Shown piece by piece: positions 3,371 through 62,780 of a DNA stretch of 64,000 bases. The stretch is from Mobula hypostoma (taxonomy: Eukaryota). The position numbers were made by a program, and so were the translations under genes. The stretch is from the NCBI RefSeq assembly GCF_963921235.1, contig NC_086097.1:160148001-160212000 (forward strand). The letters run 5' to 3'. Position 1 is the first letter of the stretch, and every line of letters starts with the position of its first letter. The notes beneath the pieces were generated by a model. That model had not been told where the DNA came from. It made no database searches and worked only from the letters and a program-made list of their open reading frames with translations.

Positions 3371-5068
3371 AATAATAAACCAATATAAATCTCAGAATAA
3401 AACTGTTCAGAATAATATTGCAGAAGAACAAATTAACTCGTCCTCTACTATAACATGCTGTATGGCATCTTGGGAGCATTTCAAATTGGACCATGAAGGT
3501 GAAAATCAGCAAATAAGCCTGGCCTTAACATCTAATCCCTCGAACTCACTGAGATTCATACTCCATTGGGTACAGTTACTCTGAAAATTACAAACCAAGT
3601 GGAAGGCTTAGACTTGTGAAATAACAAAAGCTCACTGTCACATCTGCATTCTTGATGACATCTCTCAGAAATTATTGAACTTTTCAAAAGAAAAAGAAAG
3701 TAAGTGGGCATGTCAACTATAGACAAGCAAAGGTACCATGATTTTATCTTTAAAAAATAAACTTCAGCTTGATCCATAAATATACAAGGTTAAAGTAGAT
3801 CACTAGAGCTAAGGAGATACCATTTTATTTAATTCCTCTAAAATCAATACAAAAGATTGACAGGGATCTAAAACAGGCAACTAATACCACATCCCTTGTA
3901 AACGTTCACAAAGAAAACCAAATTTCTGCTTCATAAATTTAACCATTACAGTATTTAAACAAAATAAAATTGCACTTAATTAGTCTTTTTTGAATGCAGA
4001 GTCCATCAGATTTAAGGTAGTGTATATTATCATCTGGTTCTTTGTTTTGACTTTTAAATTATGCAGGTGTATTGATTACTCCATTTTATCTTTGGACCGT
4101 GGAGGAATCCAGAGCACCGCATGAAAACGCACATATTCCACAGGGAGAATGCACAGACACCTTGCAGATGACATCGGAAGTGAACTCTGAACTCCAATGC
4201 ACCAAGCAGATGAAATTAAATCAAATGAAATGGTATCTCTTTAGCTCTAGCGATCAAAGATATATTTTGACCTTGTACATTTATGGATCAAGCTGGTTTA
4301 TTTTTTAAAGATGGTAGCAGCTGGAACAGTTTATGGTTGGGGTAACTCGAGTCCTCAATGATCTTTTGGGTCCTTTTTACACACCCGTCTTTTAAATGTC
4401 CTGAATGGTGGGATAGTGGGAAGATCACATCTATAGATGTGCTGGGCTGTCCACACCACTCTCTGCAGAGTCCTGTGATTGAGGGAAGTGAAGTTCCCTC
4501 TGTATTTTCTTACTTTCTAAATAGCTGAGGATATTTGGCTCAACCACCCTTTCCTGCAATGAATTCCAGATCCCCACTGTTCTTGGGATATACAATATTT
4601 TTTTCTAAATTCTCCTTTTTTCTTGCCATCATTAATTTTAAGCATCCATCCCAGCGGAAGTCCCACTTAATTTGTTTAGGCTACTAATAATTTACACATC
4701 TCAATTACTGTAAATCGACTATCTTCTTTTGTTGTAGAGAAGACTAAAGCTGGGGAAGGGAGTAAATAAATAAACCTTCCATTTTGTTTCCCATTCCCTT
4801 TCCCAAAATAGTGGACAATTATAAGTAATTTGAATGAATTATAGGAGATACAGTGGCATGCAAAAGTTTGGGCACCCCAGTCAAAATTTCTGTTATTTTG
4901 AATAGCTAAGCGAGTAAAAGATGAACTGATTTCCAAAAGGCATAAATTTAAAGATGACACATTTCTTTAATATATTAATCAAGAAAACTTTTTTATTTCC
5001 ATCTTTTACAGTTTCAAAATCACAAAAAAGGAAAAGGGCCCAAAGCAAACGTTTGAGCACCCTGCATG

Positions 5069-8026
5069 CAAGGGTCAAGGATGTCTCTGAGTGGCTGCAG
5101 GACGTTCTGGAGTGGGTGGGTGAACAGCCAGTTGTCGTGGTGCACATAGGTACCAATGATATAGGTAAAAACCGGGATGCGGTCCTACAAGGTGAATTTA
5201 GGGAATTAGGAGATAAACTAAAAAGTAGGACCACAAAGGTAATAATCTCTGGATTACTACCAGTGCCACGTGCTAGTCAGAGTAGAAATAGGAGGATATA
5301 TCAGATGAATACGTGGCTTGAAAAATGGTGCAGGGGGAGGGATTCAAATTTCTGGGGCTTTGGAACCAGCTCTGGAGGAGGTGGGACCGGTACAAACAGG
5401 ACGGTCTGCACCTGGGCTGGACTGGAACCAATGACCTAGGGGGAGCGTTTGCTACTGTTGTTCAGGAGGATTTAAACTAATGTGGCAGGGGGATGGGAAC
5501 AAGTGCAGAGAGACAGAGGGGTGTAAAATGAGGGTAGAAGCAAAAAGTAGTAAGGTAAAAAGTAAGAGTGGCAGGCAGACAAATCCAGGGCAAAAATCAA
5601 AAAGGGCCACTTTTCAACATAATTGTATAAGGGCTAAGAGTGTTGTAAAAGCAAGCCTGAAGGCTTTGTGTGTCAATGCAAGGAGCATTCGTAACAAGGT
5701 GGATGAATTGAAAGTGCAGATAGTTATTAATGAATGTGATATAGTTGGGATCACAGAGACGTGGCTCCAGGGTGACCAAGGATAGGAGCTCAGCATTCAG
5801 GGATATTCAATATTCAGGAGGGATAGGCATGAACGAAAAGGAGGTGGGGTAGCATTGCTGGTTAGAGAGGAGATTAATGCAATAGAAAGGAAGGACATTA
5901 GCCAGGATGATGTGGAACCGATATGGGTAGAGCTGCATAACACTAAGGGGCAAAAAACACTGATGGGAGTTGTGTACAGGCCACCTAACAGTAGTAGTGA
6001 GGTTGGGGATGGCATTAAACAGGAAATTAGAAATGCGTGCAATAAAGGAACAGCAGTTATAATGGGTGACTTCAATCTACATATAGAATGGGTGAACCAA
6101 GTTGGTGAGGGTGCTGAGGAAGAGGATTTCTTGGAATGTATGCGGGATGGTTTTCTGAACCAACATGTCAAGGAACCAACTAGAGAACAGGCCATTCTAG
6201 ATTGGGTATTGAGCAATGAGGAAGGGTTAGTTAGCAATCTTGTCGTGCGAGGCCCCTTGGGTAAGAGTGACCATAGTATGGTGGAATTCTTCATTAAGAT
6301 GGAGAGTGACATAGTTAATTCAGTAACAAAGGTTCTGAACTTAAAGAGGGGTAACTTTGAAGGTATGAGATGTGAATTAGCTAAGATAGACTGGCAAGTG
6401 ATACTTAAAGGGTTGACGGTGGATATGCAATGGCAAGCATTTAAAGATCGCATGGATGAACTACAACAATTGTTCATCCCAGTTTGGCAAAAGAATAAAC
6501 CTGGGAAGGTAGTGCACCTGTGGCTGACAAGGGAAATTAGGGATAGTATCAATTCCAAAGAAGAAACATACAAATTAGCCAGAAAAAGCGGCACACCTGA
6601 GGACTGGGAGAAATTCAGAGTCCAGCAGAGGAGGACAAAGGGCTTAATTAGGAAAGGGAAAAAAAAGATTATGAGAGAAAGCTGGCAGGGAACATAAAAA
6701 CTGACTATAAAAGCTTTAATAGATATGTGAAAAGAAAAAGATTGGTTAAGACAAATGTAGGTCCCTTACAGTCAGAAACAGGTGAATTGATCATGGGGAA
6801 CAAGGACATGGCAAACCAATTGAATAACTACTTTGGTTCTGTTTTCACTAAGGAGGAAATAAATAATCTTCCGGAAAAAGTAGGGGACCAAGGGTCTAGT
6901 GAGATGGAGGAACTGAGGGAAATACATGTTAGTAGGGAAGTGGTGTTAGGTAAATTGAAGGGATTAAAGGCAGATAAATCCCCAGGGCTAGATGATCTGC
7001 ATCCCAGAGTACTTAAGGAAGTAGCCCAAGAAATAGTGGATGCATTAGTGATACTTTTTCAGAACTCTTTAGATTCTGGGTTAGTTCCTGAGGATTGAAG
7101 GGTGGCTAATGTAATCCCACTTTTTAAAAAAGAAGGGAGAGAGAAACCGGGGAATTATAGACCGGTTAGCCTAACATTGGTGGTGGGGAAAATGCTAGAG
7201 TCAGTTATAGAGTCAAAGATATGATAACAGCACAGTTGGAAAGCGGTAAAGTCATTGGACAAAGTCAGCATGGATTTGTGAAAAGAAAATCACGTCTGAC
7301 GAATCTCATAGAATTTTTTGAGGATGTAACTAGTAGAATGGATAGGGGAGAACCAGTGGATGTGGTATACTTAGATTTTCAAAAGGCTCTTGACAAGATC
7401 CTACACAGGAGATTAGTGTGCAGACTTAAAGTAAGGTACAGCAGGCGGAGAAAAAGGCGAATGGTATACTGGCATTCATAGCAAGAGGATTCGAGTACAG
7501 GAGCAGGGAGGTACTACTGCAGTTGTACAAGGCCTTGGTGAGACCACACCTGGAAAATTGTGTGCAGTTTTTGTCCCCTAATCTGAGGAAAGACATTCTT
7601 GCCATAGAGGGAGTACAAAGAAGGTTCACCAGATTGATTCCTGGGATGGCAGGACTTTCATATGATGAAAGATTGGATCGACTAGGCTTATACTTGCTGG
7701 AATTTAGAAGATTGAGGGGGGATCTTATTGAAACGTATAAAATCCTAAAGGGATTGGACAGGCTAGATGCAGGAAGATTGTTCCCGATGTTGGCGAAGTC
7801 CAGAATCTGTGGAATTCTCTGCCACAGGAAACAGCTGAGGCCAGTTCATTGGCTATATTTAAGAGGGAGTTAGATATGGCCCTTGTGGCTAAAGGGATCA
7901 GGGGGTATGGAGAGAAGGCAGGTATAGGGTTCTGAGTTGGATGATCAGCCATGATAATACTGAATGACGGTGCAGGCTCGAAGGGCCAAATGGCCTACTC
8001 CTGCACCTATTTTCTATGTTTCTATG
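5069..8026 (+). mobile_element. CR1 LINE, 5'-truncated in ORF1, with internal deletions
   Basis: ORF1 esterase (VVVHIGTNDIG…ISGLLPVP), APE endonuclease (NARSI, GITETWL, GVVYRPP, MGDFN, SDH), RT N-terminus (SQHGF, YLDFQKA). RT core missing at ~7430. Ends in a TTTCTATGTTTCTATG tail. Confidence 0.95.
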
Positions 8027-8645
8027 GCAGTACTTAGTAATACCCCCTTTGGCAAGTGTCACAGCTCATAAATGCTTTTCGTAGCCAGCTAAGGGTCTTT
8101 CAATTCTTGTTTGGGGGATTTTCATCCATTCTTCCTTGCAAAAGGCTTCTAGTTCTGTGAGATTCTTGGGCCGTCTTGCATGCACTGCTCTTTTGAGGTC
8201 TATCCACAGATTCTCCATGATGTTTAGGTGAGGGGACTGAGAGGGCCATGGCAAAACCTTCAGCTTGCACCTCTTGAGGTAGTCCATTGTGGATTTTGAA
8301 GTGTGTTTAGGTTCATTATCCTGTTGTAGAAGCCATCCTCTTTTCATCTTCAGCTTTTTTACAGACGGTGTGATGTTTGCTTCCAGAATTTGCTGGTATT
8401 TAATTGAATTCATTCTTCCCTCTATCAGTAAATGTTGCCAGTGCCACTGGTTGCTACACAAGCCCAAAGCATGATCGATCCACCCCCGTGCTTAACAGTT
8501 GGAGAGGGGTTCTTTTCATGAAATTCTGCACCCTTTTTTCTCCAAGCATACCTTTGTTCATTGCAGCCAAAACGTTCTACTTTAACTTCATCAGTCCACA
8601 GGACTTGTTTCCAGAATGCATCAGGCTTGTTTAGATGTTCCTTTG
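8027..8645 (-). pseudogene. Tc1 transposase catalytic-domain remnant (left arm)
   Basis: FWKQVLWTDE…TVKHGGGSIMLWAC…GTGNI, then after a frameshift QQDNEPKH…WPSQSPHLNIMENLW. Confidence 0.9.
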
Positions 8646-8664
8646 AATCTTTTGAATGGAATTT

Positions 8665-9105
8665 TTTGGCTTGTGCTGCATCCAGCGGCACGGGGAACAT
8701 TTACTGATAGAGGGAAGAATGAATTCAATTAAATACCAGCAAATTCTGGAAACAAACATCACACCATCTGTAAAAAAGCCAAAGATGAAAAGAGGATGGC
8801 TTCTACAACAGGATAATGATCCTAAACACACCTCAAAATCCACAGTGGACTACCTCAAGAGGTGCAAGCTGAAGGTTTTGCCATGGCCCTCACAGTCCCC
8901 TGACCTAAACATCATCGAGAATCTGTGGATAGACAACAAAAGAGCAGTGCATGCAAGACGGCCCAAGAATCTCACAGAACTAAAAGCCTTTTGCAAGGAA
9001 GAATGGGTGAAAATCCCCCAAACAAGAATTGAAAGACTCTTAGCTGGCTGCAGAAAGCATTTACAAGCTGTGATACTTGCCAAAGGGGGTGTTACTAAGT
9101 ACTGA
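8665..9105 (+). pseudogene. Tc1 transposase C-terminal remnant (right arm)
   Basis: QQDNDPKH…WPSQSPDLNIIENLW with 34 residues between D and E; ends AKGGVTKY*. Confidence 0.9.
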
Positions 9106-25470: not shown

Positions 25471-25936
25471 CATATCGTTACCATTGCATGCCCACCTCAA
25501 GTACCGTATGACTGAGCCTAGCAGCTGAGGTTTCGCCTCTGGGAGTATAGTCCTAGCTTAACAAGAAACATGGAATGCTCAGTGATTTATTGTATTCTAC
25601 TATATGAAACGATGCAGCATCTGAAAAAGCATTTGACTGACCAAAGCTTAGTTGGATTTAGATTAAGTGCTGACAAATGGAATTAGTGTAACTAGGTATT
25701 TGATGGTTGGCATGGAAAGAAGGCCCGTTCTGTGTGATATGGTCCTCTTTTATATTCATTACTCCCAGTGCTGCCTCCTCTACATTGGTGAGACCCGACG
25801 TTGATTCATCGAGCACTTTTGCTCCATCCACCACAAGAGGCAGGATCTGCTGATAGCCATCCATTTAAATTGACTTCCCATTCACATTCTGACATATCTT
25901 TCCATAGCCTCTTCTACTGGAAGGATGAACTGACAA

Positions 25937-28197
25937 AAATTATTCCGCTATTTATGAAGGGTGGGAGGCAGCAGAAAGGAAACTATAGACCTGTTAGTCT
26001 GACATCAGTGGTTGGGAAGGTGTTGGAATGGATTGTTAGGGATGAGATTACGGAATACTTGGAGGCACATGACAAGATAGGCCAAAGCCAGCATGGTTTC
26101 CTGAAAGGAAAATCCTGCCTGACCAACCTACTGCAATTTTTTGAGGAAATTACAGGCAGGGTAGACAAAGGAGATGCAGTAGATGTGGTACACTTGGATT
26201 TTCAGAAGGCCTTTGACAAGGTGCTGCACGTGAAGCTGCGTAGCAAGATAAGGGCTCATGGAATTATAGGGAAGTTACTAGCATGGGTGGAGCACTGGCT
26301 GATCAGCAGAAAAAGAAGAGTGGGAATAAAGGGATTCTATTCTGGCTGGCTGCTGGTTACCAGCGGAGTTTCACAGGGGTCGGTGTTGGGACCGCTGCTT
26401 TTTACGATGCATGCCAATGATTTGGAACATGGGATTAATGGATTTGAGGCTAAATTTGCCAATGTTACAAGGATAGGTGGAGGAGCAGGTAGTATTGAGG
26501 AAACAGGGAGCCTGCAGAGAGACTTAGATAGTTTAGGGGAATGGGCAAAGAAGTGGCAAATGAAATACAATGTTGGAAAGTGTATGGTCATGCACTTTGG
26601 TGGAAGAAATAAATGGGAAGACTATTATTTAGATGGGGAGACAATTCAAACTGCAGGGATGCAAAGGGACTTGGGAGTCCTTGTGCAAGATACCCTAAAG
26701 ATTAACCTCCAGGTTGAGTCAGTGGTGAAGAAGGCAAATAAAATGTTGGCATTCATTTCTAGAGGTATAGAATATAAGAGCAGGGATGTGATGTTAAGGC
26801 TCTATAAGGCACTCATGAGACTACACTTGGAGTATTGTGTGCAGTTTTGGGCTCCTTATTTTCAAAAAGATATACTGACATTGGAGAGGGTTCAGAGAAG
26901 ATTCACAAAAATAATTCCAGGAATGCAAGGGTTATTGTATGAGGAACGTCTGGCAGCTCTTGGACTGCATTCCCTGGAGTTCAGGAGAATGAGGAGAGGA
27001 TCTCATAGAAATATTCTGGATAGAAACCATAGAAACCATAGAAAAAACTACAGAACAGAAATAGGCCTTTTGGCCCTCCTTGGCTATGCCGACCCATTTT
27101 CTGCCTAGTCCCACTGACCTGCACAGGGACCATATCCCTCCATACACCTCCCATCCATGTAGCTGTTCAATTTATTCTTAAATGTTAAAGAAGAACCTAC
27201 ATTTACCACCTCGTCTGGCAGCTCATTCCACACTCCCAGCACTCTTTGTGTGAAGAAGCCCCCGCTAATGTTCCCTTTAAACTTTTCCCCCCTCACCCTT
27301 AACCCATGTCCTCTGTTTTTTTTTCTCCCCTTGCCTCAGTGGAAAAAGCCTGCTTGCATTCACTCTATCTATACCCATCATAATTTTATATACCTCTATC
27401 AAATCTCCCCTGATTCTTCTACGCTCCAGGGAATAAAGTCCAAACCTATTCAACCTTTCTCTGTAACTGAGTTTCTCAAGTCCCAGCAACATCCTTGTAA
27501 ACCTTCTTTGCACTTGTTCAACCTTATTAATATCCTTCCTGTAATTTGGTGACCAAAACTGAACACAATACTCCAGATTCGGCCTCACCAATGCCTTATA
27601 CAACCTCATCATAACATTCCAGCTCTTAAACTCAATACTTTGATTAATAAAGGCCAATGTACCAAAAGCTCTCTTTATGACCCTATCTACCTGTGACACC
27701 ACTTTTAGGAAATTTTGTGTCTGTATTCCCAGATCCCTCTGTTCTACTGCACTCCTCAGTGCCTTACCATTTACCCTGTATGTTCTACCTTGGTTTGTCC
27801 TTCCAAAATGCAATACCTCACACTTGTCTGAATGTTAGAAGGCCTGAACAGATTAAATATGGCAAAGTTATTTCCCATGGTAGGGGATTCTAGGACAAGA
27901 GGGCACGACATCAGAATTGAAGGATGTCCATTTAGAACAGAGATGCGGAGAAATTACTTTAGTCAGAGGGTGGTAAATCTATGGAATTTGTTGCCATGAG
28001 CAGCTGTGGAGGCCAAGTCATTGGGTGCACTGAAGGCAGAGATAGATAAGTTCTTGAGTAGCCAGGGTATGGGGAGAAGGCAGGACAGTGGGGATGACTG
28101 GAAGAATTGGATCAGCCAATGATTGAATGGCGGAGCAGACTCAATGGGTTGAATGGCCTACTTCTGCTCCTATATCTTATGGTCTTATGGTCTTATG
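25937..28197 (+). mobile_element. CR1 LINE, 5'-truncated (RT domain to 3' end), interrupted
   Basis: NYRPVSLTSVVGK, SQHGF, LDFQKAFDKV, SGVSQGSVLGP, LEYCVQFWAP; resumes at ~27829 and ends in (TCTTATGG)n. Confidence 0.95.
27018..27828 (-). mobile_element. CR1 LINE 3' fragment nested antisense in another CR1
   Basis: ORF 27277..27813 MHFGRTN…LVRPNLEYCVQFWSP; (TTTCTATGG)n tail at ~27020-27045. Confidence 0.92.
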
Positions 28198-30721: not shown

Positions 30722-31298
30722 AGTAACCCTCAGGTTCAGCCAATGGCATTAGTCTCGGGAAGACAGACTCCGGCCCCACCAAATGTGTGAAATCTGAGGT
30801 GCAAAACCTCTTGTTTGTGTGGATGTTGTGTAATGTGTTCCCCTGTTACGGGTCAGTACCTCGAAATAACAGACAATGCACCATATGCAATTAAATGATA
30901 CAGCTTTATAATTCTTAATTTGACTAGAGAGTTGGTAAAGAAAAACAAAAAGAAAAGGGCCCATTTTAATGAAACGGTCTGATGTGCACATTGGAGCTCA
31001 AGGTTTCCCGTCCGTTAGTCATCCATCGATTTCACCCAGGTATCATCAACTCCCGACCCCATTCCAAGTCCACTTTGTCCTGCAGTCTATGACCTCTCTG
31101 TTCTGGCATCTTCTCTCTCCCTCTTCTGCCGAACAAAAGAACTCAAACCACTCGCTCCCAGGCACGCAACAAGAAAAGGCACTCCCTTTATTGCACGGTA
31201 CACATTCCAAAGCCTCCGTTATCTCTAGTCATAACCCAAACACTGATGCTATGAAACAACCATTACATTAGCAGTAAAACCTTCCCCAGGGCATTACA
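30722..31298 (-). repeat. 3' LTR of the Gypsy element
   Basis: Direct-repeat homology to 36095-36672; adjacent PPT (minus strand GGTAGGGAGAGAG, 31299-31311). Confidence 0.92.
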
Positions 31299-32289
31299 CT
31301 CTCTCCCTACCAAATTTAGTCATGTCCTCATGACTTTGAGATAATTTGCCAACTCTTCATGCAAAACACAAAATCCAACCCAAGTGTGAAAGGCAGTGAC
31401 ACAGCTCCCCAAAGCAGTAGGGGCCACACTCTGTTCCCCTGGTGCTACATAGGCCAGCCTGATTCTTTGAGAACTCCACAACCCCTCATCTACTTCTTCA
31501 TGTTCCGACACTACTGGGAATAATTCTGGTCTACCTGGCGAGGTCTCCCCCAGCCTATCACTCATGCCCTCCTGCAACTTAGACCCCTCTGTCCTTTGGC
31601 TGAGCCCTGCTTCATTCCTTGCAGGGTCCTGCTGAAACCCAGGCTGTCCACAGACAGCCAACCCCCACCCCCGATTTCACCTGACACAACGTGAGAAGGG
31701 TTGGGAATCTCTTCCTCAATCAGTGGGGAGTTAGCAAAAGGCAGCGTATACTACACCCCCCATTCCCTCATCCTCCGAATCAGTATCCCTCTCAGGGGCA
31801 GAGGCCAGCCTAACCTCTCCTGCTGTTGGTCCTTCGGTCGCCCTGCCTCACCGCAGAGTCCTCTTACTAGGTGTAGGCTCAAGGTCGGGCTCTGGGTCAA
31901 CCTGCGCCTCTTGTCCCAGAGGCAGAAGGTAGTTCCGATGGAGAATCTTGACAGGCCCATTCCCATCCTCTGGTTTCACCCAGAAAACCGGTACGTTTGG
32001 TATCTGACTCTCCACTACATAGGGCATAGCCGCCCAGCAGTCAGCCAATTTATGCTTCGCAGGTAGCCCCAAATTCCTTATGAGGACTTGGAGAACCTAA
32101 CCTTTTGATCATACCTCCTCTTGTTTCCTTGATTCTGCTTGGCAGTCGTGACCTCAGCTAATTCATTAGCCCTTTTCAACTCCCTTCTCATATCAGACAC
32201 ATACTTCAGATGTCTTTGGTGGTAGGTCATCCTCCTCAGTCCCAAAACAAAGGTCGATGGGCAACCACACCTCGCACTCAAACATCAGA

Positions 32290-32930
32290 TAATACGGCGA
32301 GTACCCGATAGCTTCATTTCGGGTGCAGTTGTAGCAGTGGACCAGCTGTCCAACATGTTGACTCTACCTACTCTTCTTGCTGATCACCAAGGTTCTGAGC
32401 ATGTATAGCAAGGTCCGATGAAACCTCTTGGGCTGGGGATCACCCTGCGGGTGATAAGGAGTAGTCTACGCCTTCTCGACTCTGATCATGCTCAGTAATT
32501 CATAGATGAGCCTACTCTCTAAGTCCCATCCCTGATCACTATGGATCGTCCTGTGGAGGCCATAATAAATTAAATACTTCTCCTGTAACACTATGGCCAC
32601 GGTGGGCACCCTCTGATCCTTGGTAGGGAAAGCTTGCGCATGTCTGGTGTAATGATCGGTGATAACAAAGACATTCGTTATGTTGCTGGCATCTGTCTCT
32701 GTTGACAGGAAATCCATACACACCAGGTCAAGGGGCCCCGCACTCTGCAAGTGGGACAAGGGAGCTGCCCTCATAGGCAGCATCTTCCTCCGTATGCATT
32801 GAATGCACAACTTGCAGTATTCGTCAACCTCCGGCTTCATTCAGGGCCAGTAAAACCGATCTCTGAGCAATCCACAGGTCTTTTCAACCCCCAAATGTCC
32901 AGAATCATCACGAAATGACTTCAACACAAT
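32290..32930 (-). pseudogene. Gypsy integrase remnant
   Basis: DDSGHLG…RDRFYWP, CIQC (HHCC), LVCMDF, ITDHYTR, IHSDQG. Confidence 0.9.
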
Positions 32931-33399
32931 CCTCCGGTACTTCTCAGGCAGAACAAGCTGGGAATGCTGAGGCCGGTCCAGAGATGATGTGACCCAGTAT
33001 CGGATCTGGTTCCTCAATGCCAATCCGGGCCATTCTCTCAGTAATGGAGGCACCACAGCATGTTTTGTCTTCTCCGCTTGGGCCATGTCTCCCTTTTCAA
33101 ATGGTACCAATGCCTGTGCCATCTCGATAAGCACTTGCCACTTCTCCAGGACTCAATTCCAGTAACTGGTTTGTCTTCAGAGCAGTCAGCTTACAGTAAG
33201 CTTGTGGAATGGTGTCATCAGTTGATCAGCTGCTCGATCCCACCCTTGCCTTCTGTCTGTCTTCACCACGATGGCAGACTGGCACATGGCCTTCACCCCC
33301 GGGGCAGAAATGCTCTGCCACTCTCTGTCCCAGTCCAGTCCACGTCAGGACAAAGCATCAGCATCAATGTTTCTACTTCCCAGCTGGTACTTCATGCTA

Positions 33400-34330
33400 A
33401 AATCATAGGCAGACAATGTCGCCAACCACCGATGGCCTGTGGCATCCAATTTTGCCAAGGTCAGGATATAAGTTAGGGGATTGTTGTCTGTCCTCACCTC
33501 AAACTTGGCACCTTAGAGGTAGTTACTCAGCTTATCCACCACAGCCCATTTCAATGCCAGAAAGTCCAATTTGTGCGTGGGATAGTTTTCTCAGAGGGCG
33601 ACAGATTCTGGCTGACAAACACAACAGGTCTCAACCCAGTGCCTGTTCCTGATACAGGACACCCCCTAAGCCCTCTCTGCTGGTATCCATGTGCAGTACA
33701 TATGGCAATTGGTGGTCTGCAAAAACCAGCACAGGCACTTGGGTCAGCATCTCCTTCAGCAACTGAAAGGCCTCTTCAAATTTTGCATCCCACCTCGGTC
33801 CAAAAGCCTCCGAAGATCTAAGATACATTTTACCCTCCTCTCCTTTTGTCCTCCTCCCTTTTCTCCCCAAGGGAGGGTAACCACACAGAAGCTAATTTAA
33901 AGGGTGACTCACTTTCGCGTAGCCCTTCACAAACTTCTGATAGTAACCACAGAACCCAAGGAATGAACGCAAAGCGCTCACAGTCTGAGGTCTTGGCCAT
34001 GTGGTCACCGCCTCTACCTTAGACGGATCTGTAGCTACTCCTTTCCGTGAGTCCATGTGTCCAACATAGCTGACAGACATCTTGCAGAACTGGCACTTGT
34101 CCAGAGATCACCCGCACTAAGACCCCAGATCTCTAGTGCATTGAATGACCTCAATGGTAAGTGTATCAAATACTGGTTGTAAAATGAACACTGCAACAAC
34201 GTGACCTGCAACCCGGTGTCAAATATGGCTTTAGCATAAATACCCTCTATCTGTAGCAACACACTGGAACTTGGCCCCACTAAGCCTTCAGGAATAGGGT
34301 TTTTTTTCTTTAGGGTGTTCCTAATATATT
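33400..34330 (-). pseudogene. Gypsy protease, RT C-terminus and RNase H remnant
   Basis: AIFDTGLQVT (protease) joined directly to KCQF…VSYVGH…LRSFLGFCGYY; LHMDTSREGLGGVLYQ (RNase H). Confidence 0.88.
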
Positions 34331-34399
34331 GCTGGGAATGTGTCGCCCTCAATACAACAGGCCATCCCCTCAATGGGTCTCTTTTAAGTTTTCCCAGCA

Positions 34400-36001
34400 A
34401 TTCTCTCTGCTTAGGTACTCAGGGGCTCACTCTCTGAGGGGTTTCACATCGTTCACACTCCTGCCTGGTGTCCCTCTTCACTACAGTTATAAGAGACAAT
34501 TCCGGCCGCTCCCCTTCTTGCATGACGCTGGCTGCTAGCAGCGTTCCACATAGTCCGTCCCATTAGAGGAGCCACTTCCCTATCAGCTCCATCAAATGGC
34601 GGGGGGGGGGGGTCACATCTGCTGATAACAACAACCGGGACATCTCAGTTCTCAACTCTGCCACAATCTCTTCTACCGCTCCTGGGGACAGGCTATCTGG
34701 GGTCACTTCACTGCAGGGGACCACTACCGAGCACTGTACCCTGCTGACGGAGGCCTCCCACGCCCCTGATGCATTCTCCTCCTCTCGTAGTTCTCTAATC
34801 AGCTCAACAAAGGAGAGATGAGGGCGCATCTTACGAAACATTCAGAGACCCAAAGCAATCAGGTCCTGGGACTGGGCACCCTTTGCTATCTGGTCCATTC
34901 TTAACTGATCCACCTCGCCCGTCTGAATGGCCCCTCTGCACTGCCTGAATGGCTCCTCTGTGCGGCAAGAAATTTAGCTGCCTCTCTAGCTGAAAGATGT
35001 AGGTAGAAAGCTTCTCCCCCTTCTCTTGACACATGTTCTGAAACCCTGTCATGAGCTCCACTGGGCTTCCTGCCATGCCAAATGCCTTTTCCAGTGCTCG
35101 CATGTAAGTGGCAGTAGTGGCAAGGGAGTACTGGGATTTTACGACTCTCGCAACATCAGTAGCCCGCCCACTCTAACTTTCAGCCAATCACTGTCATATT
35201 ACATCATCAGAGCACTGCCACTCATCTAATAACTGAGAGGTCTTCTCCGGCCAAGTCTCATACTCTTCCAACAACAGGAATTCTGCAGATGCTGGAAATT
35301 CAAGCAACACACATCAAAGTTGCTGGTGAACGCAGCAGGCCAGGCAGCATCTCTAGGAAGAGGTACAGTCGACATTTCAGGCCAAGACCCCTCGTCATCA
35401 CCAGCAACTTTGATGTCTCATACTCCTCCTCCCCTTTAGGGTTGGGCTTCATTCCTGAGAATAGGCAAAGCCTACCATAGCTGGCACTTTGAATCTAGGC
35501 ATTTTTCTATTTATTCACCAGGGAGGCAAGGGTGGATACTAACTCAGAATTCTCACTCTTCACTGATGGACGGGGACTCATTAGACATTCCAAATCAGAC
35601 CACTCCTTCCCCTTGATAAGCAGAAACAAGAGAACCCTATCTTTTAAGTCTCCGCCCCCAGCTACAGGAGACTTGATTTGCGATTTGGCCTGTTCCGCTG
35701 TACTCTCCTCCTCCCAGAAAGTATGGACAGTCCATGGCCCCCTCTCTCTTGGGGCCCCAGTAGTACCAGGCAGTTCCACTGCCATTACATCAGTGCTAGT
35801 CCAAACTAAAATAAGGTTTGTGCTGGCCATTTTATCAAATCTCCACCCCACAATCATAACATTGCTTACAGCTTTAACAGTACTTAAAAATTGAATTAAC
35901 AATTCATCAGGAGTACGAATAGCTACCCCACTCAACACGCACATATTCGTTACCGGTAACCCTGTGGATGAACACCACCACTCCACCCCTGCAGCATCCA
36001 T
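34400..36001 (-). pseudogene. PNMA-like Gypsy gag remnant
   Basis: N-terminus MDAAGVEWWC…CVLSGV…GPWTV and capsid-like ALEKAFG…QEKGEKLSTYIFQLERQL resemble PNMA-type gag; frameshifted. Confidence 0.75.
35270..35414 (-). mobile_element. Short Penelope terminal fragment inserted in gag
   Basis: Antisense to the PLE terminus at 12750-12846; flanked by GTCTCATACTCTTCC (35255-35269) and GTCTCATACTCCTCC (35415-35429). Confidence 0.8.
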
Positions 36002-36072
36002 ACTAGCACAGACTTAACACACAACCCACTGGTTCAATGCTCAGGGCAATCACACAGCATCCAACGAAATCA

Positions 36073-36090
36073 ATCCTGGATGAGCCCCCA
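36073..36090 (-). promoter_or_regulatory. Primer-binding site complementary to tRNA-Pro
   Basis: Minus strand TGGGGGCTCATCCAGGAT versus canonical PBS-Pro TGGGGGCTCGTCCGGGAT (2 G>A mismatches), 4 nt from the 5' LTR. Confidence 0.85.
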
Positions 36091-36094
36091 CAGT

Positions 36095-36672
36095 TGTAAC
36101 CCTTAGGTTTGGCTGGCAGCATTAGTCTCAGGAAGACAGTCTCTGGCCCCGCCGAACGTGTGAAATTTGAGGTGCAAAATCTTTTGTTTGGGTGCATGCT
36201 GCATGATGTGTTCCCCTGATACAAGTCAGTACCACAAAATAATAGACAATACACCATATGCAATTAAATGTTTTAACTTCATAATTCTTAATTTGACTCG
36301 AGGATTAATGAAAAAAAAACAAAAAGAAAAGGGCCTATTTTAATGAAACAGTCTAACGTGCACGTTGGAGCTCACAGTTTCCTGTCCATTCCTCCTCCAT
36401 CAATTTCCCTCGAGTCTTGTTGACTCCTGAACCCATTCCAAGTCCACTCCATCCTGCAGTCTATGACCTCTTTGTCCTGGCATCTTCTCTCTCCAGCTTC
36501 CACCGAACAAAAGACCTCAAACCACTTGCTCTCAGGCACACAACAAGAAAAAACACTCCTTTCATTGGATGGCATGCATTCCAAAGCCCCTGTTATCTCT
36601 ATTCATAACCCAAACACTGCTGCTACAGAACAACCATTACATTAGCAGTGAAACCTTTTCCAAGGCATTACA
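36095..36672 (-). repeat. 5' LTR of the Gypsy element
   Basis: TGTAAC…TTACA termini; homologous to 30722-31298. Confidence 0.92.
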
Positions 36673-44312: not shown

Positions 44313-44925
44313 ATAGAACATAGAACATAGAATAGTACAGCACAGTACAGGCCTTTCGGCCCACAATATTGTGCCGACTCTCAAACCCTGCCTCCCATAT
44401 AAGCCCCCACCTTAAATTCCTCCATATACCTGTCTAGTAGACTCTTAAACTTCACTAGTGTATCTGCCTCCACCACTGACTCAGGCAGTGCATTCCACAC
44501 ACCAACAACTCTCTGAGTAAAAAACCTTCCTCTAATATCTCCCTTGAACTTCCCACCCCTTACCTTAAAGCCATGTCCTCTTGTATTGAGCAGTGGTGCC
44601 TTGGGGAAGAGGCGCTGGCTATCCACTCTATCTATTCCTCTTATTATCTTGTACACCTCTATCATGTCTCTTCTCATCCTCCTTCTCTCCAAAGAGTAAA
44701 ACCCTAGCTCCCTTAATCTCTGATCATAATGCATACTCTCTAAACCAGGCAGCATCCTGGTAAATCTCCTCTGTACCCTTTCCAATGCTTCCACATCCTT
44801 CCTACAGTACTCCAAGTGTGGCCTAACCAGAGTTTTATAGAGCTGCATCATTACATCACGACTCTTAAACCCTATCCCTCGACTTGTGAAAGCTAACACC
44901 CCATAAGCTTTCTTAACTACCCTAT
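44313..44925 (-). mobile_element. Young CR1 LINE 3' fragment
   Basis: ORF 44381..44899; (TTCTATG)n tail; near-identical to 62055-62780. Confidence 0.93.
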
Positions 44926-54709: not shown

Positions 54710-55681
54710 CAAACAGTACTGGATCCCAGGAGGCCCCAAAGAGATTGGAGAGACGGTAGGTGCCCTGTTGTAGGAGGGAGTCACTTGCCCAGCCACCTTC
54801 CCCTACAACAGCATGGTGTGGCCAGTGCAGGAGTGGAATGGAACGTGGCACATGATGGTTGACTATTGACAGCTGAACAAGCATACTCCATTCCTCAGAG
54901 CAGCTGTTTCAGAGTGGTGACCACTATTGAGGACACAGGTTGCAGGGGGAGGAAGCATTGGTCGGTAGTGGACCCGGTCAATGCCTTTTTCTCCACTCCC
55001 CTGAGTCCAGAGTCCCATGACCAGTGGGGTGGTCGGCAGTGCTCCTTTTGCTGCCTCCCCCAGGGGTATGCTCACTGTCACATGTTGTGCCTCAGCATGG
55101 TAGCTCGTGATTTTCAGGGGGTACAGCAGACCCTAGAATCTCCATATCGCACTGCACGGGCAATGTGCTGTTACAAGGGCCTTTGCAGGACATGGTGAGG
55201 CAGGCACTAGATGAAATGGTTACCTGCCTAAGGGAGCAGGGTTAATCTATCAACCAAGATAAGTGTCATGGTCTGGATCGGGGTCCCTTTAAATTTACCT
55301 TGTTTATGTTACCATCCGGACCATTGATTCCCTGTTTTCCCGTGTCCCTCGGCTTTGGTGATTAGAGGCAATTAACGCTCGGCTGAACTGTTAGTTTATA
55401 GTTTCTGACTTTCAGCCGTTCGGCGCGGGAGCATCTGCAAAGTCATCAAAGGTATGGTGTGCCGATGTCATCTGGCCGGAGCAAGCCTAGTCTCTGCCGA
55501 AGCGAGTGCCGGTAATTCGCCCTTCCTCACCGGAGCAACCCTGTCCAGTTACCTCGGCAAAGCAAGCCTGCAAAGTTTCCTCATCAATGTGGGTCCGTCA
55601 GTTAACCCGCCAGAGAGAATCAGGAGCCGCTGTCTACTGTTGCTGGGCCGAGTCTAGAGCTCGCCACTACCCAGAGGTTCG

Positions 55682-55860
55682 AAGTACCACGTCCAAGTCC
55701 TGGCTCCGGCAGCATCCAAGTACCACGTCCAAGTTCTGGCTCCAGTGGCATCCAAGTACCACGTCCAAGTCCAAGTCCTGGCCCTGGCGGCATCCGAGTA
55801 CCAAGTCAAGTCCTGACCCTGGCGGCATCCGAGTACCTAGTCAAGTCCTGGCCCTGGCAG
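55682..55860 (+). repeat. ~33-42-bp tandem repeat (about 5 units) inside the solo LTR
   Basis: AGTACC(ACGTC)CAAGTCCTGGC(T/C)C(C/T)GGC(A/G)GCATCC units. Confidence 0.85.
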
Positions 55861-55999
55861 TCTGTGATTCCTGTCCTAACCCCCTGTCTGAATCCCTTCT
55901 CTGCTCCTCTCGCCTCTAGCCCTCGTCTGTAGCCCTCGCCTGCACCTCGGTCTAGCTCTATCACTGGAGCTAGATAGGAACTGTGTTGTTCTTTGGTGT

Positions 56000-56135
56000 T
56001 TGTCTTGTCTTGTCCTCGCCTCCGTGGGGTAAGTCAGGCCGTCTTGCCGTTGCTCCGCGAGGGGTCATGTCTTGTCTTGTCTTGTCCTCGCCTCCGTGGG
56101 GTAGGTCAGGCCGTCTTGCCGTTGCCCCGCAGAGG
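56000..56135 (+). repeat. ~72-bp tandem duplication inside the solo LTR
   Basis: TGTCTTGTCTTGTCCTCGCCTCCGTGGGGTA(A/G)GTCAGGCCGTCTTGCCGTTGC occurs twice. Confidence 0.85.
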
Positions 56136-58140
56136 TTCATGAGTCCCGGCCCTATGTTCTGTACACAAGGAGGGGTCCCAGCTCTCTGTTCTGTGTGTGA
56201 GTCCCAGCCCTATGTCCTGTACCCAAGGAGGGGTCCCGACTCTATGTTCTGTGTATGTGTCCATGGTTCCATGTACCTGCTCTTCCGAGACCGAGGCTCT
56301 GTTTTCCATGTTTCTCCTCTCCCTAGCCCATGTCATGTCCTTGCCTGGTTCTGGGGTCCGAGCCCGAGGCAAGACCCAGGTACTGGGTCCTTGCCCAGTC
56401 TCGGGCTCGGAGTCCATACCCTAGCCTCTTCATGTCTCCTCTAGTTCTGGGAGCCGATTCCGAGTCCTAGCCCAGACCCCTAGTCCCAGCCTAGTAGTAG
56501 TCCTGAGTCCTTGTCCAATTTGCTATTCCTGCTCCTACCTAGCTCTCCTGGTATCGAACAATAAACTAAATCTAAGTAACCTCACAAGATGTGTCTTGCA
56601 TTTGGGTCCACCCTTGCTCCCAATGCCCCTGCCACTGTGACAATAAGATACAGGGCTCAGGTCAGAATGTTTTATTTCTGAGCATACAGTGGCATTCTAG
56701 GTAGCAGGCGATACCCAATAAGACCAAGCACAAGATCTTGAATGCTGCAGTCCCCACTTCTAAGGAGGAAACACAGCACTTTGTAGGGCTTCCTGAGTAT
56801 TGAGGCCAACATATTTCCCACCTGTCCAGGATATTACAAGCCCTACACCAAGCCACCCACAAAAAGACCGGGGTCCTGAACAGCAAGCAGGCAGTGGAAC
56901 AGGCTCCCCAGACAGAGTGGAGGACCATTTGAAATGTAGGTTTCAGCTGTCCCTAGAGCGGCTCAGTAGATCCATGGCATGTGCTCAAGTGGCTTCGTGT
57001 CCCTTTAAGGTTTTGGAGCAAGACTTTCCATGAGGCAGCAACCTGATGCACCTGCTTCAAGAGGCAGTTGTTGGGCTGCTATTGGGCCCTCCTGGCCACT
57101 GAACACCAGGCAGCTTCAGAGCCAGTCGTGCTGCGACGGTATCTCCCTACCATGCAGTGGGTGAAGTCCAACAATGCGACTCACAAGCAAAGTCGTCATG
57201 CAGGAGGGAGAGGGGGATATCCAGCTAACAGATGAGTTGGTGGCCATGACCTGCCCATCAAAGCAGCAACTAGGCCGATTAGAATCTATACCGACCCCTG
57301 GGCAGTGGCCAGTGACATGGCGGTCTGGATGCCTCAGTGACATGAGCAAAGCTGGAGGTGCATGGGTGCCCCTATTGGCAACATAGTTGGAGGGATGCAC
57401 AGCAGCAGCAGATTGTGATCATTCATGCAGATGGCCACACCTCTAGGGACACAGAGGAGGCCATGCATAATGCTGCTGGAGATAGAGCAGTGCAGATCAG
57501 ATGGCCACAGTGCGTTCTGAGGATGAGGACCATGTTTGCCTGGCAGTCTGTGCTCACCAGAAGAGTGGGCACTTATGGGTGGACAGGATTAGGAAACGGG
57601 CAGAGGCTCAAGTGGTGGTGCTAACTTACAACAAGGCCAAGCAGGCAGTCACAAGCTGCCTGATCTGCCAGTAAGTTAAGCCCAGAGGATGACCAGCAGG
57701 TCCCTTGGGGCACATCCAAAGCAGCACAGGAGCTGGTCAGGTCTGGTAGATAGATTATATTCGGTCACTTCCGCAACAAAATAAAAAAACATGGTCAACA
57801 CATACCGGAGTCCTGGTGGCAGTGCCGTATGACCAGGCTGACCAGAAAAACACAGAGAAAGGTTTCCAGCAATTGTCATCCATGTAAGGGATCCCCTGGG
57901 GGATTAAATCAGATAATGGCTCACATTTCGCAGGAGCTATGGACCAGGATTGGGCAATGGAATCCAGCAATTCATGGGTGTTTTACATCCCATGTTATCT
58001 GCAGAGCAAATGCATGAATGGGTTGTTAAAGCAACAGATAAATCTACTGACCCCGGCACGCACCCTTCAGAGGTGGCTGGGTGCGATGCACCAAAGTAGT
58101 GGACTTCCTGAACTCCCAGTCAGCATGTTCAGTGGACAGG

Positions 58141-58385
58141 TAGAAAGATAGATAGATAGATACTTCATTGATCCCAAAGGAAATTACTGTGTTACTGTAG
58201 CATTACAAGTGCACAGATATACAAACGTTAGAAAGGAAGTAAGAAAGAAAAAAAAAATAGGTTGCTTCAAACAGTCTAACGGGAGGGGGTCATCACTTCC
58301 CTGGCTATAGGTTGACTCATTGTAGTCTAACAGCCGAGGGTAAGAATGACCTCATTGTGCTCTTTGACCAGTGCAGTTGTCTTAA
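58141..58385 (-). mobile_element. LINE 3' end (Rex-like) with (TATC)n tail inserted in the ERV integrase region
   Basis: (GATA)n followed by cttcattgatcccaaaggaaattac; ERV-like sequence resumes at ~58390. Confidence 0.6.
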
Positions 58386-61300
58386 TATATTCTGGCATTT
58401 AGCAGTGTTGGGCCCCCTGAAGCTAGACGAGTGGATTTGGAGGATGAATTGAGGGAAGTTTGGGTGCGGTTAACGACAGGAGCCACCAGTGCGGGGAGGG
58501 ACTGTGGCGTGCAGACCAGGGAATACGTGGTGGGTAGCGTTACTAGGAGAACTAGGAATGACATGTCTAAATGCCCAAGGATTAACTAAGAGAATGGTTT
58601 CTTAAGATTCAAAATGTATGCAATAGAAATAATGTATATAGTTATTGGGAGGAATAATACATCAAATGATATTTATTTGTTCCATGACATGACCTTATTG
58701 TATTTGTTTGGCAAAAAGAAAATGTTATTGGGATATTAATAATTTAGAAGTCATTTCTTTTATTGAAAACTATAATTTGTTTGAATGCTGTTTTGTGGGT
58801 TTGCAATTAGACTACAGTAATGAGAACAGTTAGCTGGTGCAAAGATTAGTCAACAATAATTAGACCCCTGGACAGTTGCCAAAACACTGTCCTGGTAGAG
58901 ATGTTTGCAGTACTTCAGGAGTGCTGGAATAATAAAGATATCATTTTCTATCAAGGTAAAACTACCTTCAGGAGCAGTGGCTGGGTACTGCAAGTGGTAC
59001 CTGCGGTCCTTGCGTAATTGGTGGAAGTAGCTTGTAATTTTTTAATCCTTTCATTCAAGTAGTTAGAAATCCATTGATTGTGCGCTGATAAGAGAAAGTA
59101 GAAGCAAGTATAGGACATACTGTATATTCTTTACACCTGATCAGTCATACATTAAGATCCTAGCTAAGCCTTTAATTTATCCCTTTTTCTGACCTTTGTT
59201 TCCTTATCTAAAATCTTCCTGTCTCATTCTTGATTATACTCAGTATCCATAATCCTTCGGGGCAAAGAGCTTAATGTTGTGAACACTGCTCCTCATTGTA
59301 TCATGGGACTGGACCTGCAAAGAAAGTGCAAGCTATTAAAAAGAATCTATAAAATAATGCCGTCAATGGTGTGTTGATGCCACCAACCTCCCTGTGTTCT
59401 GAGCTGCCTTTGTTACACTCGTGATTTGAGCTTAATCTGCTTGCAAGGGGTCTAAATGCTTGATATTTGAATAAGGTTATTAAAGGCCTCAAAACCATGT
59501 GATTGGCCATCATAATGCAGCAATGATCATTCAATGAAAAGTCTGGCCAGCTTCAGTTTTAAAGGCACTCCCTCTAACTTGACAAGAGTGCCCTGAAGCA
59601 TGGAGGACAGTGTCAGTATTTGTCACCAGAGCCTAATCCATAATTTTTAGCTGAAGCCTGATAGAGAGAACATTGGTATCTTCCAAGAATAAGCCAAGCA
59701 AGGCAAGCAGAAAAAGGATTTCTTATCAGTTTTGGTTTGGTTTGGATGACCAGTAGTATTTCTGTGGGATCCACAAGGAAACTTTTTGCCAATTCTGCAT
59801 CTCCTCTCTAACAACATATGGGATCTTATTTCCAGATTTCTCTTTTATGAGTTGAATATGTCTTGGTCTACATGCTTCCCGTCAGCCAGGAAGTAATTCT
59901 TGTGAGATCAGGGGAAATTTAATCCTGTGTTGATAAATGAGCCAGGAACAGACCTGTCATGTCATTATACTGTGCACTCCACTCTCCCATATTTTGTTTC
60001 CGACTCTGTATTGAGGTAAAATCAAAGGAAATTTCATGGCTTCTAGGATGGTTGCTGGTGATCAGGCCCTCTTATTGTTTCTGTCACTGACTATAAACAT
60101 TTAAAAGAAATAGCAATGAAAACCATGCTAGACTGCATCAACTGCAGCATTCTCTCTCCTCCAAGTTAAAGTTGAATATCCTGGCTTCCAAGTCCCAGTC
60201 GGAGAAGGGCACCAGGTTCTTGAGAACGTCCCGCTTCCATTTCCCCTCCATGTCACATTCCATGTTAATTTGGAAAAAAACATCACTTTTCTTCAACTCT
60301 GTTGGATCCAAATACTGCACTTTCCCTCTGAACCACATTGAGGAGTACCACACAGACAAGAGCAACTTCAGGTTACCACCACCTTCTTAAGAACACTTAG
60401 GAATGGTCAACAAATGCTGAGTTTGCCAGTTATGCTGATTTAAAATTATTGTTAAAAATCTGGTGATATATTTGGTATAATCAGTAAACACATCTAATTG
60501 GTTTAATTTCTAGATCTTGTGGAATAGTTCATTAACAATAGTAGTCACAGCATTAGACAGCCCCAAAAGAGGCCATTTGGCCCACTACGTTCAAACTGAC
60601 TATCAAGTGCCCATTTACACTAACCCTGTGATCATTCCACTTTATTCTCCCTAGTATTAAAGGAAAGTTGGTTGGTACTTAAATGAAGTGTTGGTTGAAA
60701 TGTAAGAGTTGTTGGCACATCTTTAATTCCAATTGAAAAAGGAAATTGCAAAGTAGAACACGACAATGGGGAAGGACATTCACCATTAAAGACATTCATT
60801 TCCTCTGCCAGTCCGACTTAGTTGGAGATTATTTTTATTCAGCTTTACATTTCATTACAGATTAGCCAGGAACTCATTTCTGTTCCCTTAAGAATCCTTT
60901 CCCATCAGAATATTTCAGATATTGTGAAAATAGATCCTGACAGATGCAGATAAACATAGCTTTTTCCCTTGCAAAGGAAGAAGAGTCCAGTTTCTGGGCT
61001 GAAATTACTTCAAGTTTCTCCTATCCCAGCTATATTGTGAACTTTTGATGGAAAAACTTTTAGTTTTAACCCAATGAAAAAGGTAAGATTTTTAAGGTGG
61101 GTTCAGATGTGTACTCTAAATAGAAGTGAATCTTGTAAGCTATGCTGAGTCAAGGTAAAGTAAGTCATTTCATAATAAAATCTCTAAGGCAACAAGAAAT
61201 GGAGTGTTACAATGCTATCCAGATTTTCACCTCTCATTTTGCTTTACCTGTCAAACTTTGATTACAGATTTAGGTTAAAGAAACTTCTGACCTCAAACAC

Positions 61301-62054: not shown

Positions 62055-62780
62055 AGTAAATGGCAGGATACTTGGTAGTGTGGGGGAGCAGAGGGATCTG
62101 GGAGTACATGTCCACAGATCCCTGAAAGTTGCCTCACAGGTGGATAGGGTAGTTAAGAAAGCTTATGGGGTGTTAACTTTCATAAGTCGAGGGATAGAGT
62201 TTAAGAGTCGCAATGTAATGATGCAGCTCTATAAAACTCTGGTTAGGCCACACTTGGAGTACTGTGTCCAGTTCTGGTCACCTCACTATCGGAAGGATGT
62301 GGAAGCATTGGAAAGGGTACAGAGGAGATTTACCAGGATACTGCCTGGTTTAGAGAGTATGCATTATGATCAGAGATTAAGGGAGCTAGGGCTTTACTCT
62401 TTGGAGAGAAGGAGGATGAGAGGAGACATGATAGAGGTGTTCAAGATAATAAGAGGAATAGATAGAGTGGATAGCCAGCGCCTCTTCCCCAGGGCACCAC
62501 TGCTCAATACAAGAGGACATAGTTTTAAGGTAAGGGGTGGGAAGTTCAAGGGGGATATTAGAGGAAGGTTTTTTTACTTAGAGAGTGGTTGATGCGTGGA
62601 ATGCACTGCCTGAGTCAGTGGTGGAGGCAGATACACTAGTGAAGTTTAAGAGACTACTAGACAGGTATATGGAGGAATCTAAGGTGGGGGCTTATATGGG
62701 AGGCAGGGTTTGAGGGTCGGCACAACATTGTGGGCTGAAGGGCCTGTAATGTGCTGTAGTGTTCTATGTTCTATGTTCTA
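62055..62780 (+). mobile_element. Young CR1 LINE 3' fragment
   Basis: QRDLGVHVHRSLKV…[17 protein letters not shown]…; (TTCTATG)n tail. Confidence 0.93.

Follow-up and report, generated by a model that had tools for sequence, protein, structure and literature searches.

A dead class III pol remnant in a ray genome, very probably left by an env-bearing retrovirus family of the HERV-L/ERV-S group

What kind of retrovirus left the broken pol gene found at positions 54710-58590 of the 64,000-nucleotide stretch of ray DNA analyzed here (the window), and when did it arrive? The remnant lies on the plus strand and retains a collinear but dead RT-tether-RNase H-integrase. We conclude that it is very probably a dead class III pol remnant from the HERV-L/ERV-S group and belongs to an env-bearing family with many decayed copies; this family likely reached the ray germ line through infection, at a time when several related ray lineages had not yet separated. 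The host had been taken for a probable cartilaginous fish in a first-pass annotation, and RAG1 bears this out, being 95% identical to that of Hemitrygon akajei, 82-84% to those of electric ray and skate, 78-80% to those of sharks and at most 73% to those of bony vertebrates. These identities therefore indicate a myliobatiform ray.

The first-pass annotation had read RT, RNase H and integrase in collinear order across stops and frameshifts. All 13 of its motifs are found on the plus strand, in pol order and spread over three frames, and a frameshift-aware codon-level alignment of the window with a profile built from 28 class III Pol proteins covers 667 of 814 columns and crosses 13 stops and 8 frameshifts. 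The same alignment picked up, without prompting, a 1384-base interruption in RT (Table 1). The reconstructed pol is collinear but not complete: near 57186 it lacks about 110 residues, from the end of the tether through half of RNase H (its first half). There the match to the H. akajei protein P0003 breaks at residue 1030 and restarts at 1169, with 27 window codons between, and sister copies carry 300-400 further bases at this point. The remnant does occupy the interval first given, 54710-58550, but family sequence continues to about 58586.

Table 1. Features of the pol remnant and of the sequences nested in it (window positions)
Feature	Position	Strand	Basis
RT N-terminal part (fingers/palm), with stops and frameshifts	54710..55263	+	motifs, profile alignment, protein matches
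Left ATAAG, 5-bp target-site duplication of nested solo LTR	55259..55263	+	sequence
Nested solo LTR, 1379 bp, TG...CA	55264..56642	+	copy search, fetched copies, ortholog contigs
Right ATAAG, target-site duplication copy	56643..56647	+	sequence
RT thumb and tether (degenerate RNase H), ending at internal deletion	56648..57186	+	Pfam, protein and sister-copy matches
RNase H C-terminal half; ~110 preceding residues deleted	57187..57501	+	protein matches, sister copies, ortholog contigs
Integrase zinc finger and core, with stops and small deletions	57486..58140	+	Pfam, PDB, sister integrase matches
Second nested insert, high-copy repeat starting with TAGA units	58141..58385	.	sequence, ortholog contigs
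Integrase C-terminal region; family similarity stops here	58386..58590	+	sister-copy comparison

At the YxDD position both catalytic aspartates are lost from the window; YIDD survives in 2 of the 12 family rows that cover the site and in 6 of 12 younger ray relatives. Pfam matches to the window pieces are weak and fall below the curated cut-offs. A PDB search with the thumb-tether piece returned nothing useful, and one with the integrase piece gave weak matches to the ASV and foamy integrases and no others. Elsewhere in the window we detected neither an LTR of the family nor its gag, protease or env, and no host-gene domain was found among the 33 scanned of its 43 long frames. No RNA source is listed for the stretch, a result that does not bear on expression. 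This copy is now likely without function, and the locus itself is junk.

Since the window keeps no LTR, primer site, gag or env, we took the anatomy of the family from sister copies, which share ~70% DNA identity with it; 40 loci were examined. Searches of the same genome with two parts of the window pol yielded at least 57 and at least 40 DNA matches at about 63-81% (the set of 40, from the RT N-terminal part, counts the window copy itself), and the integrase of one sister copy has at least 144 six-frame matches in the 3.48-Gb assembly, in which the window occupies C1:160148001-160212000. Fuller copies, which the first-pass annotation had proposed to seek, thus exist: they carry gag, protease, RT, tether, RNase H and integrase in that order, together with env and LTRs of ~470 bp that begin with TG. 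Directly after the LTR end lies a primer site complementary to the 3' end of host tRNA-Ser(AGA), which matches at 15-17 of 18 positions in seven family loci and at 18 and 16 in two younger relatives (shuffled sequences reach 12-15). ERV-S elements use a serine primer, to which they owe their name. Env-like SU or TM matches stand 3' of integrase in 13 of 18 elements, and Pfam TLV_coat (TM pieces) is recognized in three of the seven env-region pieces scanned, the family copy scoring below the curated cut-off. These env remains suggest infection as the mode of spread. The flanks of family copies are heavily decayed; one younger relative keeps a 5-bp target-site pair with one mismatch. Judged from these assembled features, the ray family resembles an enveloped class III retrovirus of ERV-S/XtERV-S build.

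Younger ray class III subfamilies occur at L076, L077, L078, L107, L111 and L117 (contigs C91, C18, C68, C100, C123 and C21), where LTR divergence is 0.05-0.10, gag or RT frames are long and open, and env remains bear a CWIC motif and a class I-type TM; they may represent repeated later invasions by the same lineage. Two family copies, L016 and L024, have class I-like frames adjoining the element or within it; these encode gag, RNase H and integrase, and we take them to be epsilon-type.

Comparisons at the protein level place the family in class III. Summed over the window pieces, scores reach 461 bits with an ERV protein of H. akajei and 328 with a MuERV-L-like Pol from mouse, too high for a chance resemblance; class III Pols with the best coverage receive 284-461 bits, Gypsy proteins at most 64 and class I (gamma-type) Pols at most 37. 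A better-kept relative from the same genome, whose RT-tether frame of 454 aa includes YIDD, shows 44-56% identity to L/S-group Pols over 454 aa, matching H. akajei (56%), frogs, lungfish, caecilians, killifish, bichir, birds, mole and a mouse cluster. It has 49 matches among 6435 candidates, of which the top 24, all class III proteins, exceed 400 bits. A homolog search started from a decayed 152-aa copy found no matches.

A 37-row RT tree, comprising 5 of 15 window-family rows, 5 of 12 other rows of the same genome and 27 references, supports the window family at 100/97, a ray clade at 99/95 and the class III side at 100/100. The RT placement is unchanged in a 117-row FastTree that adds 80 of 150 representatives from a library-wide search. 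In full-Pol trees the ray clade (SH-aLRT 99-100) falls inside a clade with support of 99 that also holds the mouse MuERV-L-like Pol and a frog-bird-mole side; joining the rays to the latter side is rejected (p-AU 0.0009). The mouse protein, P0009, was taken as MuERV-L-like from its membership of a Mus musculus cluster, its YIDD and its dUTPase. The sister group of the ray clade differs between the RT-only and full-Pol trees, and a tree of the ERV copies has long terminal and short inner branches, as decayed copies would give. On these trees, built on reduced copy sets, membership of the ray family in the ERV-L/S group may be regarded as settled, its sister group not; the class III, ERV-L/S-group placement proposed at first pass agrees with both the RT and the full-Pol trees.

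Might the element nevertheless be a true ERV-L of the MuERV-L/HERV-L type, env-less, with a dUTPase after integrase, a leucine primer and intracellular spread? ERV-L elements are primed by leucine tRNA. The RT, tether and integrase motifs agree with this identity, a grouping of the ray clade with the mouse Pol is not rejected by full-Pol data (p-AU 0.52), and the RT tree sets the rays among dUTPase-bearing elements. The anatomy, however, refutes it, barring a dUTPase-bearing, env-less subfamily that includes the window copy, and we consider it very unlikely. Mouse and killifish dUTPases, each of which as a query matches 14 class III references, find no counterpart in the 40 loci, and no dUTPase is listed for the H. 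akajei protein; env remains are present, and the primer site is that of serine. MuERV-L and HERV-L, by contrast, are described as env-less and dUTPase-bearing in the accessible text of Yedavalli et al., 2021 (PMC8278194). The label 'ERV-L-like' given at first pass therefore suits the family in the broad sense but not in the strict one, given its env, its serine primer site and the absence of a dUTPase.

It is likewise highly improbable that the element is SnRV-like or another deep member of clade Huo whose likeness to ERV-L/S is only superficial. ERVs of the SnRV kind, and epsilon-like ones, are known from elephant shark (Han, 2015, accessible text); the reference rows of our trees include no labelled snakehead retrovirus (SnRV), HERV-L or HERV-S, and ten proteins looked up include no named SnRV or foamy virus; and a topology with the rays sister to all other L/S rows is not rejected by full Pol (p-AU 0.137). 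Yet the identity of the better-kept ray copy to L/S-group Pols extends over all 454 aa, and in the 117-row tree deeper unnamed retroviral RTs fall outside the group that holds the rays. Gypsy LTR retrotransposons and class I (gamma/epsilon) ERVs are both common in this genome, and the class I-like env TM recalls the second kind, but either has next to no chance of being the source; a Gypsy pol had been set aside at first pass as well. Both are refuted by the low scores of the window pieces, by those of the ray copy against solved structures (MLV RT 110 bits, foamy 92, Ty3 64, versus >400 for 24 class III proteins) and, for class I, by rejection of a tree that forces the window family to join it (p-AU 0.00015). 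Nor does the pol have the single RNase H of Gypsy/Ty3.

The first-pass suggestion that the family could extend the host range of the group fails, as class III ERVs in cartilaginous fish are already in print. In the accessible parts of Xu et al., 2018 (PMC6001957), clade Huo is stated to infect all major vertebrate lineages, and S2 Fig sets Rh_ty_ERV3 (whale shark) and No_fu_ERV1 (killifish) beside HERVL, murine ERVL and HERVS. Those of Blanco-Melo et al., 2024 (PMC11089739) report 2,843 clade III RT loci in six chondrichthyan genomes, with no split by lineage, and make clade III the majority of ERV RT in Chondrichthyes, whereas HERVS/L-like elements are described as tetrapod in the available text of Naville and Volff, 2016, in agreement with the first-pass view. 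Rh_ty_ERV3 resembles the ray family in its elasmobranch host, its listing next to HERVL in clade Huo and, by eye, in a gag similar to ray Gag P0003; it differs in coming from a shark and in being a partial consensus, and the comparison, within what the source displays, is by tip order and gag, not pol.

XtERV-S of Xenopus tropicalis shares with the ray family a class III gag-pol, a class I-type TM env, a serine primer and an HX4HX28CX2C zinc finger, which is also the spacing of the window integrase, and it has the YIDD that some of the ray copies keep; in the accessible text of Yedavalli et al., 2021 (PMC8278194) this spacing is tabulated for ERV-L and XtERV-S, not for foamy virus or MLV, and the combination of a class III backbone with a class I env is described in frogs and expected to be common. 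XtERV-S is, however, intact and recent and has a dUTPase region, whereas the ray family is old and has none; the frog-bird-mole side, which the full-Pol test rejects as a partner of the rays, is the one holding the Xenopus protein P0024. ERV-S/HERV-S is env-associated and dUTPase-less in the same source, as is the ray family, but galliform and mole Pols, which we assume to be ERV-S-like, fall apart from the ray clade. Of the MuERV-L/HERV-L kind, the mouse Pol lies near the rays in the full-Pol tree.

The closest relatives are H. akajei RefSeq proteins. The XP_072891825 cluster (13 members) and XP_072911374 belong to the same ray clade in all trees; these proteins are the best match to the window pieces, have no listed dUTPase domain, and are far better preserved, being annotated as uncharacterized or Fv1-like. 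The P0003 cluster consists of 13 H. akajei gene models of at most 1579 aa, several of them automatically named 'Friend virus susceptibility protein 1-like', and probably represents proviral gag of recent origin, not a restriction gene that was domesticated. No published description of the ray family was found in the literature searched, that outside subscription journals, Repbase and Dfam, and the lineage, old and env-bearing, is apparently undescribed. An elasmobranch ERV-L/S group with an envelope and a serine primer but without dUTPase bears on when ERV-L gained its dUTPase and lost env.

The first-pass annotation had also proposed to look for the orthologous locus in related species. Logan contigs from seven of eight runs, each with another organism label and from another study, match the locus over long parts and differ from it by ~2% (organism B), 4-7% (C), 8-9% (E, F and G), 10% (H) and 12% (I), far less than paralogs do. 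Organism D (run X10) gave short pieces only and was left out of the ortholog count. By contig similarity the locus appears orthologous across seven other organism labels. The deletion near 57186 is bridged in contigs of B, F, G, H and I, and the junctions between ERV and flank are bridged by at least 31 bases in B only. The insert at 58141-58385 is older than the solo LTR nested in RT, because contigs of C and F bridge its 3' junction. At 58592 the contigs of C, E and F break and run on into up to 1.4-1.7 kb of other sequence, and B is continuous; the C, E and F contigs leave the window here and those lineages therefore have more DNA at this point, either because the A/B lineage suffered a deletion or because the others gained an insertion.

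The interruption in RT first delimited as 55264-56647 does contain a solo LTR, but the LTR proper ends at 56642 and the last five bases belong to the ATAAG duplication that flanks it. It is a member of a younger, high-copy family unrelated to the ERV pol: 5303 candidate matches were found in the genome, and among the 40 that were scored, full-length copies are 83-91% identical. All seven fetched copies look solo, none of the seven being a two-LTR parent, and no similarity to the LTR of the ERV family was seen. Single contigs of organisms C and E join 55258 to 56643 and so represent the empty site; contigs of B enter the LTR by 25-29 bases from both sides, where the bridging rule is 31. The history of the locus may have begun with integration of the ERV, followed by loss of LTR-gag-pro and the deletion near 57186, and then by insertion of the repeat at 58141. 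The host lineages would have split after that, and in the A/B lineage the unrelated LTR element would have inserted into RT, later to be reduced by recombination to a solo LTR.

LTR pairs give K2P divergences of 0.21-0.31 (0.18-0.29 without CpG) in six family elements and 0.05-0.10 in five younger ray elements, rough values from local alignments of decayed LTRs. The family LTRs have diverged about twice as far as the most distant of the sampled orthologs. We discarded an absolute date as unreliable, the range across the rates quoted in the accessible text of Han, 2015 being too wide: ~50-70 Myr at a mammal rate or ~480-700 Myr at an assumed shark rate. If rays evolve more slowly than mammals, the age would exceed the mammal-rate 50-70 Myr. 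For paleovirology the family is of modest value, as a set of old insertions that are orthologous and datable; from these loci, and from the LTR pairs of the old (0.21-0.31) and younger (0.05-0.10) waves, a minimum age calibrated on fossils could be obtained for the group in genomes that evolve slowly. A bolder reading, that rays have their own ancient, env-bearing, dUTPase-less ERV-L/S branch with germ-line waves from before the batoid radiation to recent times, that its oldest insertions are orthologous across skates, electric rays and stingrays, and that the bony-vertebrate L/S viruses together could form the sister group of the ray clade, strikes us as unlikely. If it were true, these insertions would be among the oldest directly datable ERV insertions.

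The window holds other mobile elements. A decayed Gypsy-type LTR element with 577-bp terminal repeats (83% identity) spans 30723-36672; its minus strand carries tether-like and integrase pieces (32388-34107). LINE remains at 4893-7873 and 25792-27108, presumably CR1-like, include a GDSL-esterase ORF1 piece, an endonuclease and a 438-aa open RT frame. At 8028-9104, two 441-bp inverted arms (93%) are separated by 195 bp and each carry a piece of DDE_3 (Tc1-like) transposase, i.e., a tail-to-tail or fold-back transposon fragment. One further repeat is present as two recent copies in opposite orientation, 94-97% alike, at 44314-44925 and 62144-62780.
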